Assembly (NCBI GenBank): GCA_964016885.1
Contig: OZ024740.1
Coordinates: forward strand, 167,214,001-167,278,000
Length of the DNA stretch: 64,000 nucleotides
Direction: 5' to 3'
Source of the DNA: Eledone cirrhosa
Taxonomy: Eukaryota
Below are positions 12,083-61,620 of this stretch, piece after piece (within the stretch, counting starts at the first letter, position 1; every line of letters begins with the position of its first letter). The position numbers and the translations under genes are program-made. The notes below the pieces were generated by a model. That model made no database searches. It was not told the origin of the DNA and saw only the letters and a program-made list of their open reading frames with translations.

Positions 12083-12326
12083 AATAAACGAAGCCAAATT
12101 TTAAATATTTGACTTATTTATTTTAGTTCATTTTACATTACACCGGAGTAACCAAACCAACCTGCGCAATTCGTCGAGTGCTCCATTCTGTATACTGAGG
12201 TGTTGGTATACAACCAACATATACTCAAAATATATATATATTTAGAATGTTGAGAAGTCACACACGAGTTGATATATATAATAGTAAAAAAAGAAAACAA
12301 AAGCAGTAGAAAATGTGAATGGCATG

Positions 12327-12551
12327 TCTTCTTCTTCTTCTTCTTCTTCTTCTTCTTCTTCTTCTTCTTCTTCTTCTTCTTCTTCTATTTCTTATTTTCA
12401 TCATCATCATCCTCCTCCTCCTCCTCCTCCTCCACTTCCTCTTCTTCTTCTTCTTCTTCTTCTCCTCCTCTCCTTTTTTGTTCTCCCCCTTCTACTTCTT
12501 CTTCTGCTTCTCATTCCCCTTCTCCTCCTACTACTACCACTACTTCCACTA
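12327..12551. repeat. Compound (TTC)n/(TCA)n/(TCC)n/(TAC)n microsatellite
   Basis: Direct reading. Confidence 0.95.
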
Positions 12552-12765
12552 CATTATAGGTCAACACCAAGAACATAGAACGAGCTAACCCTCATCTGCT
12601 ACTTTCACTACCATTTCTGCAGTTATAGTCAACACCACCGAGGAGAGAGAGAAAGCGATAAACAAAAATCTGAACTCTTCTATATATCTGTATGTAATCC
12701 ATGACATTTATACAATATTCTAATTAATATACAACTTAAGTCAATTTTAAATGTTATTATACACT

Positions 12766-12810
12766 TCCGTAGCATGAAGAAGCCCCTCGTTGCCGAAACC
12801 GGTACGATAA
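12766..12810 (+). ncRNA. Degenerate minimal HHR
   Basis: gc AUGAAGA agcccctcgttgcc GAAA ccgg UA. Palindromic stem III, weak stem II, AATAAA downstream, then (TA)n. Confidence 0.4.
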
Positions 12811-13005
12811 ATTCCTTTTTTTGTAAATAAATGTTTTGCCATTATTCTATGAAAAAAATCGCATTCTACGGTTTTTTCCATTTTACTATTATATATATAT
12901 ATACATATATATATATATATATATATATATATATATATATATATATATATATATATATAGATAGATATATATCAATATTTACCCTAAGTATATATATATA
13001 TATAC

Positions 13006-13180
13006 TTACGGTAAATGTTGATGCAATCAATTCAAGCGCTTAACGTACTTATTCCACATAGGAGTGACGGAGGAAATATCGAATAAGGAAAGCGAAGTAG
13101 TTTCAGATATTCAAGTCTTTTAATAATATTATTAAGAGACTTTAACATCGGAAACTACTGCGCTTTCCTTATTCGATATA
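13006..13180 (-). mobile_element. Short inverted PLE end: palindrome 13076-13178 plus tail 13006-13075
   Basis: atatcgaataaggaaagcg..taataat|attatta..cgctttccttattcgatat. The tail on the minus strand carries ACTC-N11-AAGTAC. Confidence 0.6.
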
Positions 13181-13230
13181 TATATATATATATATATAGA
13201 AGTGGTTACACAACAGTTAGTTCACCATAA

Positions 13231-13268
13231 CGAGAACAATTGTTTCACCTTAGCGGATCTTCAGCTCG
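13231..13268 (-). ncRNA. Minimal type I hammerhead in the PLE 3' pLTR
   Basis: cgag CUGAAGA ucc-gcuaa-ggu GAAA caauug UU cucg, about 190 nt downstream of the GIY-YIG stop. Confidence 0.85.
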
Positions 13269-13454
13269 GGATGTGCATGGTTATAGTAACAAGAAGGACA
13301 ACCGTACGAACGCGCATGCGCAGAAACTCGGTCACTTCACACAGGCAATATTAGACTGCGTGCGAGAGGTGTAAGGGAGATAAGTGCGAAAGTCCGGAAA
13401 GTTTTTAGGTTGAAAATAAAATTATAATAAAATTTAAAATAAAATTACAAAGAA

Positions 13455-58710: not shown

Positions 58711-58719
58711 AAGACCAAC

Positions 58720-59665
58720 TCCCTATGTCAACCAAGAACATACCTATACCATCCAAGAATACATATGAAAAATTGTTGATTGACAGTGTAAATTCTTTTA
58801 TCAATAGAGTGAGATGGAGGACATTCCATTATGATAAAAACAAATCTAACAATGTTAATAATGCTAACAAATTTGACTCCTTCGGCTTTAAAACCTTTAG
58901 AAGCCCCCCTCATAACACACTACTAAACTCCTTTGAAAATGACCTAATAAAACTAGTTAAGAACATTAAATACAATAAGCACCGTAATAGAAACAACACC
59001 TTCTTAAACAAACTTAACACCTCTATTAATGAATTCAAAACTAGTAATAAAATGATTGTACATGCAGATAAAACTAATAACGTATACAGCCTAGATTATA
59101 ATACTTATAGAAAGTTTATATATAATGAACTACATAAAAGCTACAAGAAAACTACTATGAAAAACTTAGAAGATATTAATATAGAGGGATATAATATAGT
59201 GTCTAAACTAGGACTTCAGAGGCATACACAACCATATACCCCAACCCCCCTTAGATTCTCTCTGAAGGACCATAAGGACGACTTCATTAGCAACCCCTCG
59301 ATTACACTTATCTGCCCTTCCAAGTCTGACATTGGCATTATCAGTAAGACAATTTTAGATAAAATCATCCCACAGATTAAACACAAGATATACCTTAAAC
59401 AATGGGGAAATATGTATTATTGTTGAATGGTTCAAAGACATCAAGGATAACAAGGACAAAAAATTTATTCAATTTGATATCAATTCATACTACACCTCTA
59501 TTTCCCCTATCCTATTAAATAAGGCACTAATCATGGCCATGAACAATAGCAACCTGACTAGAACCCAGATTGATGACATTCTTGCGGCCCGTAAAACCGT
59601 AATCACCTTTGAAGACCAATTATGGACCCGCAAGGATACGCACAACAACTTCGACATAACCATGT
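58720..59665 (+). pseudogene. Naiad-like PLE reverse transcriptase, N-terminal half (one frameshift near 59415; truncated)
   Basis: STKNIPIPSKNTYEKLLID..FINRVRWR..FGFKT.RSPP..FENDL..HADKTNNVY..LKDHKDDF..CPSKSDIG.ISK.ILDKI..KQW, then VEWFKDI..KFIQFDINSYYTSIS..LLNKAL..ARKT..FDITM. Confidence 0.92.
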
Positions 59666-59759
59666 ACTCAATACGTTACTCAATGTACTCAATACGTTAG
59701 TTTAGTATAGGTATCTATGCCTACCTAAAGATATCAGAAATATAAAGATTATCTGCATT

Positions 59760-60540
59760 GAAATAACAAAAAAAGGTTTTATTAACTCCTACGATTAAAG
59801 ATCAGCCAGCTATGGGATGCAAGCTCAAAGCAAAGCCAGATGTGGATGCAACCTCAAAGCAAGGACCAGTTTGTCTCCAAACGAAACTGTTACATACCGG
59901 CAAAATTAGTCACGACAAAAACATAAAATATGTTATGGAAATTAGCATATCTCCTAGTAAATCATATTTCTGAGCAGGTTCATAGTTTTGCTCTCGAAAT
60001 ACACTCGGTCTCGTAGAAGACATTAAAAGGTTACAATGAACGTTCACTTATAATATAACTTCGGTAAAATTCATTAATCAGCGGGAACATCTGAAACCAT
60101 CCTGATTTGAACAACGATGAGATTGATATATTCTTATATATGTCTGCCACTGTTTCTTTCTGGCTGCGAGCCATGAATCATGCCTACGCAAAAACAAAAA
60201 CTTGTTGTGAATATATTTCCCACAAATTGTCTCTGCATCATCTATAGCGCAACATACCAAGATCTCATAACAAATGTGGACCTTTTCACACGCACAGAAC
60301 AGTCACATCTCTATGCTCAGTTACGAAACTAGCGATTGTCATGGATTGGACATCAATTCCGGCATCCAAATAGTAACGTCCTTGTTGTGTGTCTTCTGCT
60401 ACCAGGAGGTTGCCACAAGAGACAAAGACTGAAGACCACATTCCAAATAATGGTCAGAAAAGAATAGTCAGCGCAATTCAGCAAAAAGCCAGTAATAGAA
60501 ACGTTTGGGCAGCTCTTATTTTATGTCCCTCAAGACATTA
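59760..60540 (+). mobile_element. Degenerate RTE RT C-terminal fragment
   Basis: YQDLITNVDLFTRTEQSHLYAQLRN*RLSWIGHQFRHPNS...KASNRNVWAALI. Confidence 0.65.
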
Positions 60541-60821
60541 TTACATTATTTTAATATGGTTTATATATGTGCACATATTTCTCAGTATTCTATTATTTCA
60601 TTTGAAATAATAGATATTGATTGATTGTTTGATACATGGTAGATCCTGAAGGATATTTTTTTTATTATTTGGCATTAAACAGAATTGTATTCCCAAAATA
60701 CTGCCAACTTTCAAATATCCAAGCTTCTAAACGTACTGTACAAGTAGATGAATTTATATATATATATATATATATATATATATATATATATATATATATA
60801 TATATATATATATATATATAT

Positions 60822-61234
60822 ATTATCAAGAAAACGAAAAATCAGTGATGCATCTAGATTTGGTTTATTTCGTGTTACAAATGTTTCGCCGGCAGGTAGC
60901 TCGAGTACTGGTCCTTGTATGGATCTGGCTGATTCTACTTCTGCAAGTTCTTTCAGACACGTCTGTTATGTCCGGAGCAAATTTTATCACGTGATAAAAT
61001 TTGCTCCGGACATAACAGACGTGTCTGAAAGAACCTGCAGAAGTAGAATCAGCCAGATCCATACAAGAACCATGACTCGAGCTACCTGCCGGCGAAACAT
61101 TTGTAACACGAAATAAACCAAATCTAGATGCATCACTGATTTTTCGTTTTCTTGATAATTTATACACTCTACTCTGATGAATATCGAGTGCTAATTTTGG
61201 CATACCGCCTGTGGAAGCACCATAGCTACCACTA
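60822..61234 (+). mobile_element. Family A: spacer-less palindrome 60822-61159 (centre 60990/60991) plus tail; HHR-like motifs at 60871-60961 (-) and 61020-61110 (+)
   Basis: 169-bp arms with a few mismatches. The tail has ACTC (61166)..GAGTGC (61186)..GGCATACCGCC. Confidence 0.92.
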
Positions 61235-61278
61235 TACACAAACATATATATATATGTGTGTTTGTGTGTGTGTGTCTG

Positions 61279-61620
61279 ATGGTAGCTAATATGCTTCCAT
61301 AGGCGGTATGCCGGTTGAGCACTCTATGCTCTTACAGAGCAGAGTATGATAGAATAGAAAACGAAAAATCAGTGATGCATCTGAACTCAATTTATTGTGT
61401 TTTGCAATTGTTTCGCCGGCGGACAGCTCAAGACGCGATCATTGTGTGGATCTGTCTGATTCTGGACCCGCAGGTTCGACGGACACGTCTAATGATTTTG
61501 GAGCATATTCTCTCACTGATCCGCACAATGATCGCGTCTCGAGCTGTCCGCCGGCGAAACAATTGCAACACACAATAAATTGAGTTCAGATGCATCACTG
61601 ATTTCTCGTTTTTTATTCTC
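61279..61620 (-). mobile_element. Family A diverged subfamily: full unit on minus (61279-61517) plus inverted partial arm (61518-61620)
   Basis: Same layout as family A. Core CCGUCGA, GAAA caauug CA. Confidence 0.85.

Follow-up and report, generated by a model that had tools for sequence, protein, structure and literature searches.

A twin hairpin in Hydra-clade Penelope-like elements lies a few bases past the ends of their insertions

Hydra-clade Penelope-like elements (PLEs) of Eledone cirrhosa carry two copies of a short hairpin before their start codon, and their insertions stop a few bases short of either the first or the second copy. An end before copy 1 is called short here and an end before copy 2 long, the 'tail' of these elements is the stretch between the two, and inverted insertions combine a long end with a short one. 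The two hairpin copies, the tying of ends to copy 1 or copy 2 and the long-plus-short pairing are new here, and no description of such a twin hairpin was found in a literature search. Because insertions end so close to one or other copy, the hairpin likely tells the reverse transcriptase (RT) where to start, which would account for the puzzling tail.

Hairpin copies in the window and the elements that carry them

The starting point was a sequence-only reading of a 64,000-nucleotide stretch (the window), in which a hairpin of the form ACTC..GAGT(G/A)C was said to be shared by the tails of otherwise unrelated families. The exact sites of that reading (25408-25429, 53246-53267 and 61166-61191 on the plus strand, 61319-61345 and 42533-42558 on the minus strand) are present, as are a GCTCC form (44551-44577, plus strand) and a compensatory form (29826/29856, plus strand). 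Its four imperfect sites are real, with boundaries that had to be redrawn to 12140-12181, 24431-24501, 13036-13073 and 50805-50832. The 11 sites are not all unrelated and represent about eight families, with 76% between 25408 and 53246, 82-85% between 42533 and 50827, and 70-77% between the regions of 61166 and 61345. The sequence CATACC, supposed to follow the motif often, was seen by eye near four of the 11 sites and is not general, and the small hairpin supposed to follow it differs in sequence between families and was rejected, also by eye, as a general feature. The features of the window are as follows.

4917..4942, plus strand: further hairpin copy, absent from the sequence-only reading
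7659..9541, minus strand: Hydra-type coding region for RT and endonuclease, in fragments, resembling family D
12033..12070, plus strand: hammerhead core upstream of the 12140 tail
12140..12181, plus strand: hairpin copy 1 with a 6-bp upper stem and one substitution, where sister copies read ACTC (12176 is its 3' arm; the palindrome ends at 12135)
13036..13073, minus strand: degenerate hairpin copy 1, containing 13039-13059; intact sister in L046
13242..13264, minus strand: hammerhead core of family F
13458..13973, minus strand: C-terminal endonuclease frame, Hydra-type, family F (this copy stops at its short end, 13199, 6 nt before the hairpin start in sister copies)
22449..22474, minus strand: degenerate family D copy
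24431..24501, plus strand: hairpin copy 1 with a long loop, young family J (complete, closing at 24501; its inverted arm ends at 24426); L374 has copy 2 and the ORF
25066..25490, no strand: inverted insertion of family B, flanked on either side by (TA)n, with its short end on the left and its long end on the right
25302..25340, plus strand: hammerhead core of family B, upstream of the tail, one substitution in GAAA (GAAA intact in the inverted arm, 25127-25165)
25408..25429, plus strand: hairpin copy 1 in the family B tail; read-through sisters L003/L030 have copy 2 and a Hydra-type ORF start
28504..29951, no strand: inverted insertion of family H, short plus long end
29826..29861, plus strand: hairpin copy 1 of family H, GCTC/GAGC form; copy 2 and ORF in L339
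42533..42558, minus strand: hairpin copy 1 of family A; copy 2 and ORF in L411-L422
43207..44639, no strand: inverted insertion of family G, its short-end arm reaching into endonuclease coding sequence (44256-44564, minus strand)
44551..44577, plus strand: hairpin copy 1 of family G, with G-U as its bottom pair; L322/L328 show copy 2 and the ORF start
44713..44740, minus strand: further hairpin copy, likewise absent from the sequence-only reading
50805..50832, plus strand: degenerate hairpin copy 1 of family A (50827 is its 3' arm)
50949..50980, minus strand: hairpin copy 1 of a family A relative, with a single (TA)n between it and 50827, which it faces
52527..52551, plus strand: probable further hairpin copy with an irregular bulge
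53246..53267, plus strand: hairpin copy 1 of a family B relative; inverted arm stops at 53241
58434..59697, plus strand: broken N-terminal RT coding region, Hydra-type (a young relative has 832-codon open frames)
60823..61243, no strand: inverted insertion of family D, short plus long end
61166..61191, plus strand: hairpin copy 1 of family D; copy 2 and ORF in L423-L429
61319..61345, minus strand: hairpin copy 1 of a family D relative, 6-bp upper stem

Judged by domain order and motifs, the host elements are Hydra-clade PLEs. [quoted passage not shown] The motifs RWR/RWK and DKT occur together in families F, Y, A, B and J, RWR stands at the ORF starts of D and H, DKT in D, and the start of G was read by eye, while a CxCX5C linker, no CCHH cysteines within GIY-YIG, and CxxC plus CxH near the C-terminus were found in families F and Y. 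The elements insert into (TA)n, and a hammerhead core is present in F, B and the 12140 family, whereas family A has GAAAC with no CUGANGA core. Craig et al. (2021, PMC8557442) describe for the Hydra clade an endonuclease at the C-terminus, RWK-like and DKT motifs, CxCX5C, (TA)n targets, copies in tandem and in inverted order, and a tail at one end, all of which recur in the host elements here, and also hammerheads, of which the host elements have the core in the three families just named. Naiad, where the sequence-only reading would have looked, was the wrong place, since every traced family has a Hydra-type ORF; a Naiad identity was rejected, as the N-terminal endonuclease and the CxC and DKA motifs that, with the lack of a canonical hammerhead, mark Naiad PLEs (PMC8557442) are not those of the host elements. 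A Pfam search on fragments and full ORFs returned no PLE domain, its only RT match (37820-38323) being another element, and an Rfam search returned no hammerhead match at gathering score in the window.

Structure, abundance and occurrence of the hairpin

The motif is a hairpin with an RCUC/GAGY base, a 2-nt 3' bulge (mostly UU, UC or UA) and an upper stem that covaries; its loop is free, as is the spacer of about 8-60 nt between the arms. The idea, taken from the sequence alone, of a conserved cis signal in PLE tails is supported, and its pairing covaries. That reading had overlooked the bulge and the upper stem, as well as the existence of a second copy and the connection with both insertion ends. 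More specifically, in the 2-nt-bulge register the upper stem pairs in 44, 42 and 34 of 52 clusters, against shuffle means of 32.9, 27.3 and 21.0, and none of 5000 shuffles reached such counts. These clusters were dereplicated and chosen by sequence anchors only, and the statistics are a tree-free comparison across families; the T-A/C-G swap at upper-stem position 1 partly follows copy 1 versus copy 2 and is therefore not many independent events. The covariation lies on one strand. Tallied over clusters, the sense strand has 17 G-U against five A-C pairs, so that it is the RNA-like strand that folds, not the first-strand cDNA. Free-energy folding of four two-copy segments gave both local hairpins cleanly in one of them (L432); in L430 the 5' arm of copy 1 pairs with the 3' arm of copy 2, and in L163 and L155 the copy 1 hairpin is lost, so that the choice of fold would fall to protein. 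Rfam gave no match at gathering score across the 64-kb window, and at an E-value threshold the best 150 of 291 matches were almost all to miRNA models, far below gathering score. Those miRNA-model matches lie mostly over repeats.

The motif is also enriched over background. Genome-wide, 180,396 pattern matches compare with 27,856 for the reversed pattern, and the window holds nine distinct strict matches, where 200 dinucleotide shuffles gave a mean of 2.3 and a maximum of seven; three of the nine (7812, 36476 and 42627) have no (TA)n nearby and look like chance. In 80 arbitrary 10-kb stretches, (TA)n lies 30-90 nt downstream in 51 of 80 strict matches, and for ACTC..GAGT followed by GC in 29 of 37 cases (13% background), a combination that came top among 4043 stem/dinucleotide combinations, behind two pure-microsatellite ones. 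The 40-70 nt originally given as the distance to the microsatellite applies to nine of the 12 window sites measured (47-63 nt), but not to the other three (79-93 nt). Raw counts are ruled by few families, the largest motif clusters having 43, 20 and 14 members. A SINE-like repeat also fits the strict pattern, away from (TA)n.

Outside this genome, the hairpin was found in 69 of 78 distant metagenomic Hydra loci, and also in coral and sea-cucumber consensi already published, where it is not remarked on (File S7, PMC8557442). In distant loci, 51 hits are sense and two antisense, the shuffle mean being 0.77. With strict anchors, 19 of 55 metagenomic loci have one copy and 11 have none, the Hydra-1_Obim consensus has no recognisable copy, and a single endonuclease query against the metagenomes gave no match. 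Twelve eight-mers searched in the supplement of PMC8557442 gave at least 40 hits, line breaks hiding some, and the four in a terminal hairpin context are all Hydra; Naiad_Obim and Naiad_Ovul have GCTC..TTGAGC near the 5' end, without the upper stem.

Insertion ends and inverted insertions

In full-length elements, both copies lie in the 5' UTR between the hammerhead and the ATG, 55-172 nt apart. Of the 87 (TA)n junctions that could be mapped in random samples of the genome, 81 fall 0-20 nt before copy 1 (40) or copy 2 (41), most often at 6-8 nt (52 junctions at 6-9 nt), although, with the junction set at the start of the TA run, these distances are uncertain by a few bases of microhomology. 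The distance varies by family (6-11 nt), and both end classes start at UA/UAU. Among metagenomic loci, eight informative ends lie 6, 6, 6 and 10 nt before copy 2, 8, 8 and 10 nt before copy 1, and 13 nt before a single recognised copy.

The rule could be used predictively. For families A and D, in which no read-through copy had been seen, GCTC was predicted directly past the long end; 442 and seven matches, respectively, were found, and they continue into the hairpin and then a Hydra ORF. Longer UA runs with no hairpin behind them gave no ends against 52, and none against 29, read-through matches, a control that is weakened by the fact that its loci were mostly picked for containing the downstream sequence. 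In family F, copy 2 is irregular by eye (a long insert and an extra base), yet the long end is used. Read-through copies were looked for and not found for the 12140 family, the 13039 family and family C.

All 30 unselected inverted insertions combine a long with a short end (19/19 in the random set, 11/11 from the endonuclease search), as do 93 of 95 in a tail-targeted set; some 45 ends of the random set lack an inverted partner. In 70 mapped inverted pairs the two arms span one and the same upstream region, and there is no consistent leader in arm length (n=69: 38 about equal, 18 with the short-end arm longer, 13 with the long-end arm longer). In L1 twin priming, both target strands prime on the element RNA and an inversion results, but the second site there is one of opportunity, and each cDNA comes from a different part of the RNA. 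The two putative sites of Hydra elements are fixed, and their arms share one stretch of upstream sequence. The Hydra inversion works like twin priming, but is not an L1 twin-priming product, which was rejected because the arms of the 70 pairs overlap instead of being adjacent, non-overlapping RNA segments.

How the hairpin may act

Because both end classes sit a fixed short distance 5' of a copy, a role in RT binding or priming, one of two suggested from the sequence alone, fits best; relative to the putative priming site the hairpin holds a fixed position, 3' of it and not 5'. From this positional link it is predicted that each copy probably acts in the RNA as a docking site that fixes the RT start. 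Specifically, the element protein, probably a dimer, would bind both copies, at their RCUC/GAGY base and U-bulge, on read-through RNA (uncleaved or circular), the element endonuclease would nick both strands of the (TA)n target, and each target 3' end would anneal to a short UA patch that lies 4-11 nt 5' of a hairpin, priming cDNA there. Priming 5' of a hairpin means that it would not be copied from its own start site: priming at copy 2 would yield the long end, including copy 1 (the 'tail'), and priming at copy 1 the short end. Both cDNAs would copy the same upstream RNA and be joined head to head, so that the insertion would be inverted and have its tail on a single side. A stricter version, programmed double priming, is offered tentatively as a possibility: identical RNA hairpins would each hold one protomer of an RT-endonuclease dimer, with one start per strand, so that the tail and the inverted structure would be built into one RNP.

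An alternative, judged unlikely, is that the hairpin is read in DNA, the endonuclease recognising it in the cDNA or an integration intermediate, cutting the nearby TA patch and trimming the ends. A cut at a fixed distance would fit the end distribution equally well; Craig et al., in whose main text the words hairpin and stem-loop are absent, ascribe the tail to endonuclease-mediated resolution of an intermediate (PMC8557442), and Penelope endonuclease needed the tail to cleave plasmids, as cited by Frangieh et al. (PMC11167929). In the PLE PAc, however, both ends arise as RT start sites in vitro (PMC11167929). The free spacer between the arms also speaks against a duplex site, and the excess of G-U (or G-T) over A-C on the sense strand places the fold on the RNA-like strand.

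Quite improbable, too, is another role of the 5' UTR RNA (translation of uncapped, ribozyme-cut RNA, packaging or stability), with ends set by UA patches alone. This reading would be suited by the usual nature of RNP assembly signals, which are stem-loops at the 5' or 3' end, by the 43-90 nt that separate the end of copy 2 from the ORF match in metagenomic loci, and by the common UA/UAU start of both ends, but longer UA runs elsewhere in the RNA are not seen as ends, and both ends keep their offset although the copies are spaced by anything from 67 to 172 nt. A role of the motif as a promoter element inside the pseudo-LTR, the other one first suggested, is very unlikely: an internal promoter is present in Drosophila Penelope, and promoter predictions gave a score to the 34-bp repeat of that element, but that repeat is not required for normal initiation (PMC2377424), stems that covary round free loops, with G-U exceeding A-C, are unexpected in a core promoter, and such a promoter would leave unexplained the insertion ends that the motif's position tracks. 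Chance palindromes multiplied by a few high-copy repeats, as the dominance of few families and the SINE-like matches might suggest, have a negligible probability and are refuted by covariation across the 52 clusters, by the strand bias in distant loci and by the hairpin in consensi from other phyla.

The preferred reading, in which an RNA hairpin fixes the RT start, can be set beside other systems. Stringent LINEs have just one stem-loop, close to the 3' end of their RNA; as it lies upstream of the priming repeat, it is copied. Hydra elements have two internal copies, each downstream of a putative start site, and the base of their hairpin is invariant while the loop is free. Hepadnaviral epsilon and the template-positioning elements of telomerase, to which PLE RTs are the sister group, are RT-bound bulged or helical RNAs that fix the register of an internal template, and resemble the Hydra hairpin by analogy of its proposed role. 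In the LINEs ZfL2-1 and ZfL2-2, the 3' tail stem-loop is bound by the element's own protein and needed for retrotransposition, stem and loop of the stringent type being read separately (Hayashi et al. 2014, PMC4176376); the likeness lies in a short stem-loop as own-protein signal, binding being putative here. PAc, a Poseidon PLE of Anolis, starts reverse transcription at two internal sites bounding its tail, cuts and extends both strands, is a predicted dimer, uses unprocessed RNA, acts at AT-rich targets and requires RNA 3' of the start site (minimum +172) (Frangieh et al. 2024, PMC11167929). Paired internal sites around a tail and AT-rich targets recur in Hydra elements, where both strands would be used too. 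PAc has a short CUC/GAG hairpin just 3' of its downstream start. [quoted passage not shown]

These results touch three open questions, namely (i) how PLEs choose their start site, (ii) why the tail stands at one end only and (iii) how inverted copies originate, for which the main text of the single in vitro study locates two start sites, but not the signal (PMC11167929). Here, a short, phylum-spanning motif predicts both insertion ends to within a few bases, and the hairpin is a simple diagnostic with which to find and bound Hydra elements, of which the E. cirrhosa genome has well over 100,000 ends. If its proposed role is true, the hairpin would be the first defined RT-recognition element of the telomerase-related PLE class and a ruler for programmable internal priming on RNA. 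Such a downstream-hairpin ruler may operate in other PLE clades and may echo the internal-template register of telomerase.

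The hairpin and the elements that carry it

The genome carrying the window is large (3.0 Gb) and rich in (TA)n, and the window itself contains many short inverted repeats, with (TA)n at both flanks, and many coding fragments of Penelope-like elements (PLEs). These and other elements include the following (L-numbers are loci fetched from the same genome).

Window 13458-13973: endonuclease frame of PLE family F
Window 37345-38323 and 39522-39956, minus strand: non-LTR reverse transcriptase fragments (Pfam RVT_1, E 1.4e-8), which we take to be RTE-like
Window 2996-3547 and 41252-41595: repeat in two copies, 73% identical, that encodes the C-terminus of another retroelement-like protein
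L141:431-1516, minus strand: transposase frame of 362 codons, presumably mariner-like, beside a full-length Hydra element

The sequence-only reading had reported an ACTC..GAGT hairpin in the tails of otherwise unrelated families. Its sites lie where it placed them and the pairing stands, while the 4-bp stem proved to be part of a larger structure and the 11 sites fall into about eight families, with A, B, D, G, H and J accounting for nine and the 12140 and 13039 families for the other two. In the full-length copy of family F, the reverse transcriptase (RT) precedes the endonuclease, and RWR, DKT, CxCX5C, CxxC and CxH are present without the CCHH cysteines. Since this order and these motifs, without CCHH, are diagnostic of the Hydra clade (PMC8557442, as far as its available text goes), family F is classed as Hydra-type. 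Read-through copies of A, B, D, G, H and J have ORF starts like that of family F, so that all seven families are probably Hydra-type by their ORF motifs; the ORF of a young family related to window 58434-59697 (L226-L243) starts likewise. This second young Hydra family has dozens of intact frames of ~832 codons, in which an Asn/Thr-rich insert separates RT and endonuclease. Family J (window 22725-24594; L361-L385, L431) is very young, with 40/40 scored copies 100% identical over 205 nt and tandem units of 3538 bp. Another young tandem family, at L430 (family A), has near-identical units of 3531 bp with GAAAC and a long stem II-like arm and without a CUGANGA core upstream; its hammerhead is possibly variant or dead, in an active PLE.

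Strict matches are enriched in the window: there are 9 distinct ones, against an expected 2.3 and no more than 7 in any of 200 shuffles. Eighty arbitrary 10-kb stretches of the genome gave 80 strict matches, 51 of them with (TA)n 30-90 nt downstream. Among 4043 combinations of a four-base stem and a dinucleotide, ACTC..GAGT+GC ranks directly behind two pure-microsatellite ones (29/37 near (TA)n vs a 13% background) and ACTC..GAGT+AC ranks fifth (25/43), the reversed arrangements being near (TA)n in 0/4 and 2/18. Genome-wide, ACTC-N8-22-TN-GAGTRC has 180,396 matches and the pattern read backwards 27,856. A SINE-like repeat with ACTCAGCTG..AATGAGTAC, which we assume to resemble a SINE central domain, fits the strict pattern away from (TA)n (L101, L102, L040, L050, L088, L093).

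Structure and distribution of the hairpin

Selection on nothing but sequence anchors (RCTC upstream of GAGY-RC) gave 82 instances in the octopus genome and 111 in metagenomic loci, which dereplication reduced to 52 clusters (20 octopus, 32 metagenomic). Pairing covaries: in the register that has a 2-nt bulge, the three positions lying inside RCTC find a partner on the 3′ arm in 44, 42 and 34 clusters. The shuffle means are 32.9, 27.3 and 21.0, and these counts were reached in 0 of 5000 shuffles, which ignore kinship. Positions 4 and 5 of this upper stem are weakly paired (24/52 and 25/52), and other registers pair position 1 in 10, 6, 10 and 21 clusters. Position 1 is T-A in 23 clusters and C-G in 17, partly tracking copy 1 vs copy 2; the bulge is TT in 32, TC in 11, TA in 4 and other in 5. 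As bottom pair, all 32 metagenomic clusters have G-C, and the octopus ones have A-T (11), G-C (5) or G-T (4). A hand-picked alignment of 33 sequences (7 from the window and 26 of 32 metagenomic representatives, with one row misaligned) has 96.7% paired cells vs 84.3% when shuffled (0/500, kinship ignored).

A profile of 44 homologues retrieved 78 metagenomic loci, partly redundant and mostly 46-54% identical to the first protein. A structural descriptor was positive in 40 of these, with 51 sense-flank matches vs 2 antisense (shuffle mean 0.77), and a covariance model trained partly on the same loci matched 69/78, with 131/136 matches on the sense strand. By eye, three of the six published Hydra consensi (available part of PMC8557442, File S7) clearly have the hairpin: Hydra-2_Amil from a coral and, from a sea cucumber, Hydra-2_Ajap and Hydra-1_Ajap, the last with two copies. 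A near-perfect form is present in Hydra-1_Crog from a copepod, together with a further GCCC/GGGC version 6 nt from the start of that consensus; the hairpin is weak in Hydra-1_Amil and was not found in Hydra-1_Obim. The hairpin is a real, clade-wide RNA element. No terminal hairpin was found in the available Naiad or Chlamys consensi with twelve eight-mers, a limited test. Naiad_Obim and Naiad_Ovul have, in those consensi, GCTC..TTGAGC ~190-210 nt from the start and without the upper stem, either by chance or as a distant relative.

Two copies and two insertion ends

The hairpin occurs twice between hammerhead and ATG, copy 1 being upstream. Where 180 nt or more precede the ORF (55 metagenomic loci), strict anchors give two copies in 24 loci, three (overlapping) in 1, one in 19 and none in 11. 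Spacing is 55-74 nt in metagenomic loci and 67-172 nt in eight octopus references. At L141 (family F 5′ UTR), copy 2, by eye, appears to close around an insert of ~85 nt, and its basal stem to contain one base too many.

A short 3′ end, just before copy 1, and a long one, just before copy 2, occur in every family sampled. From 2630 (TA)n junctions (random set and window), 87 were mapped to the eight references. Copy 1 follows after 0-20 nt in 40 of them and copy 2 in 41, and 52 of these 81 are at 6-9 nt; of the others, 4 are further upstream, 1 between the copies and 1 after. In a targeted set 374/438 junctions fall 0-20 nt before a copy, and 48 of the remainder sit at a single TA run inside family B. 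Among 19 metagenomic matches listed, 8 were internal, 3 read-through and 8 informative, the last ending 6-13 nt before a copy. GCTC had been predicted just beyond the long end in families A and D before any read-through copy was known; 442 and 7 matches were found, vs 0 in reversed controls (a weak control), and the sequence continues into a full hairpin in 10 of 12 family A loci (1 degenerate, 1 truncated) and in 7/7 of family D. The tail therefore extends from one hairpin-defined site to the other, and the sequence-only reading noticed copy 1 because this copy is present at the long end only.

Inverted insertions with both ends mapped pair a long with a short end in 19/19 random cases, 11/11 from an endonuclease search and 93/95 tail-targeted ones; ends without an inverted partner were 22 short and 23 long in the random set, and under independent choice 30/30 would arise about once in a billion (our arithmetic). 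Both arms span the same upstream sequence and are equal in 38 of 69 cases, the short-end arm being longer in 18 and the long-end arm in 13. Most traverse the hammerhead, consistent with a template that is uncleaved or circular. Arm lengths cluster sharply (~52-65 nt in family A; ~90, 125 and 160-169 nt in family G), which suggests that the RT stops or switches template at fixed points of a structured RNA. Tails face each other in pairs over one short (TA)n at window 50805-50980 and again at 61166-61345; these are separate insertions stacked in one microsatellite, and such nesting is common among the fetched loci.

Possible roles of the hairpin

No description of the hairpin, its duplication or the long-plus-short rule was found in the openly available literature. 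The hairpin is not described in the available main text of PMC11167929, whose supplementary figures may show a related stem-loop, nor in the available text of PMC8557442, PMC7229834, PMC13282606, PMC4209133, PMC2377424, PMC4176376 and bioRxiv 2026.07.22.740005.

The most economical reading of these sequences is that the hairpin is a candidate RT docking site setting both starts. Elements with one copy or none count against it, as does poor free folding, since free-energy folding formed both local hairpins in just 1/4 two-copy segments. Recognition of the hairpin in DNA by the endonuclease is rather unlikely; G-T pairs exceed A-C pairs 17 to 5 over positions 1-3 (our tally), and the fold is therefore assigned to the sense strand. 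Somewhat less probable still is a function in the UTR, beside the UA patches; longer internal UA runs with no hairpin behind them were never an end in a biased sample (0 vs 52 and 0 vs 29). A promoter, the other role offered by the sequence-only reading, is improbable for this RNA element, and chance, given the pairing counts, can be dismissed almost entirely.

The docking reading resembles what the available text of PMC11167929 gives for PAc, a Poseidon PLE from Anolis studied in vitro: two internal starts bound the tail, both strands are cut and extended, a dimer is predicted, the RNA template is unprocessed and RNA 3′ of the start is needed. In its RNA a short CUC/GAG-based hairpin begins, by eye, ~8-15 nt after the downstream start region; it is only a lead, because none was seen by eye after the upstream start in that source. 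In the Hydra-type elements, each hairpin would dock one RT in the RNA, the nicked (TA)n strand would anneal to the UA patch directly 5′ of the hairpin, and the two hairpin-marked sites would provide the two target strands with one start site each.
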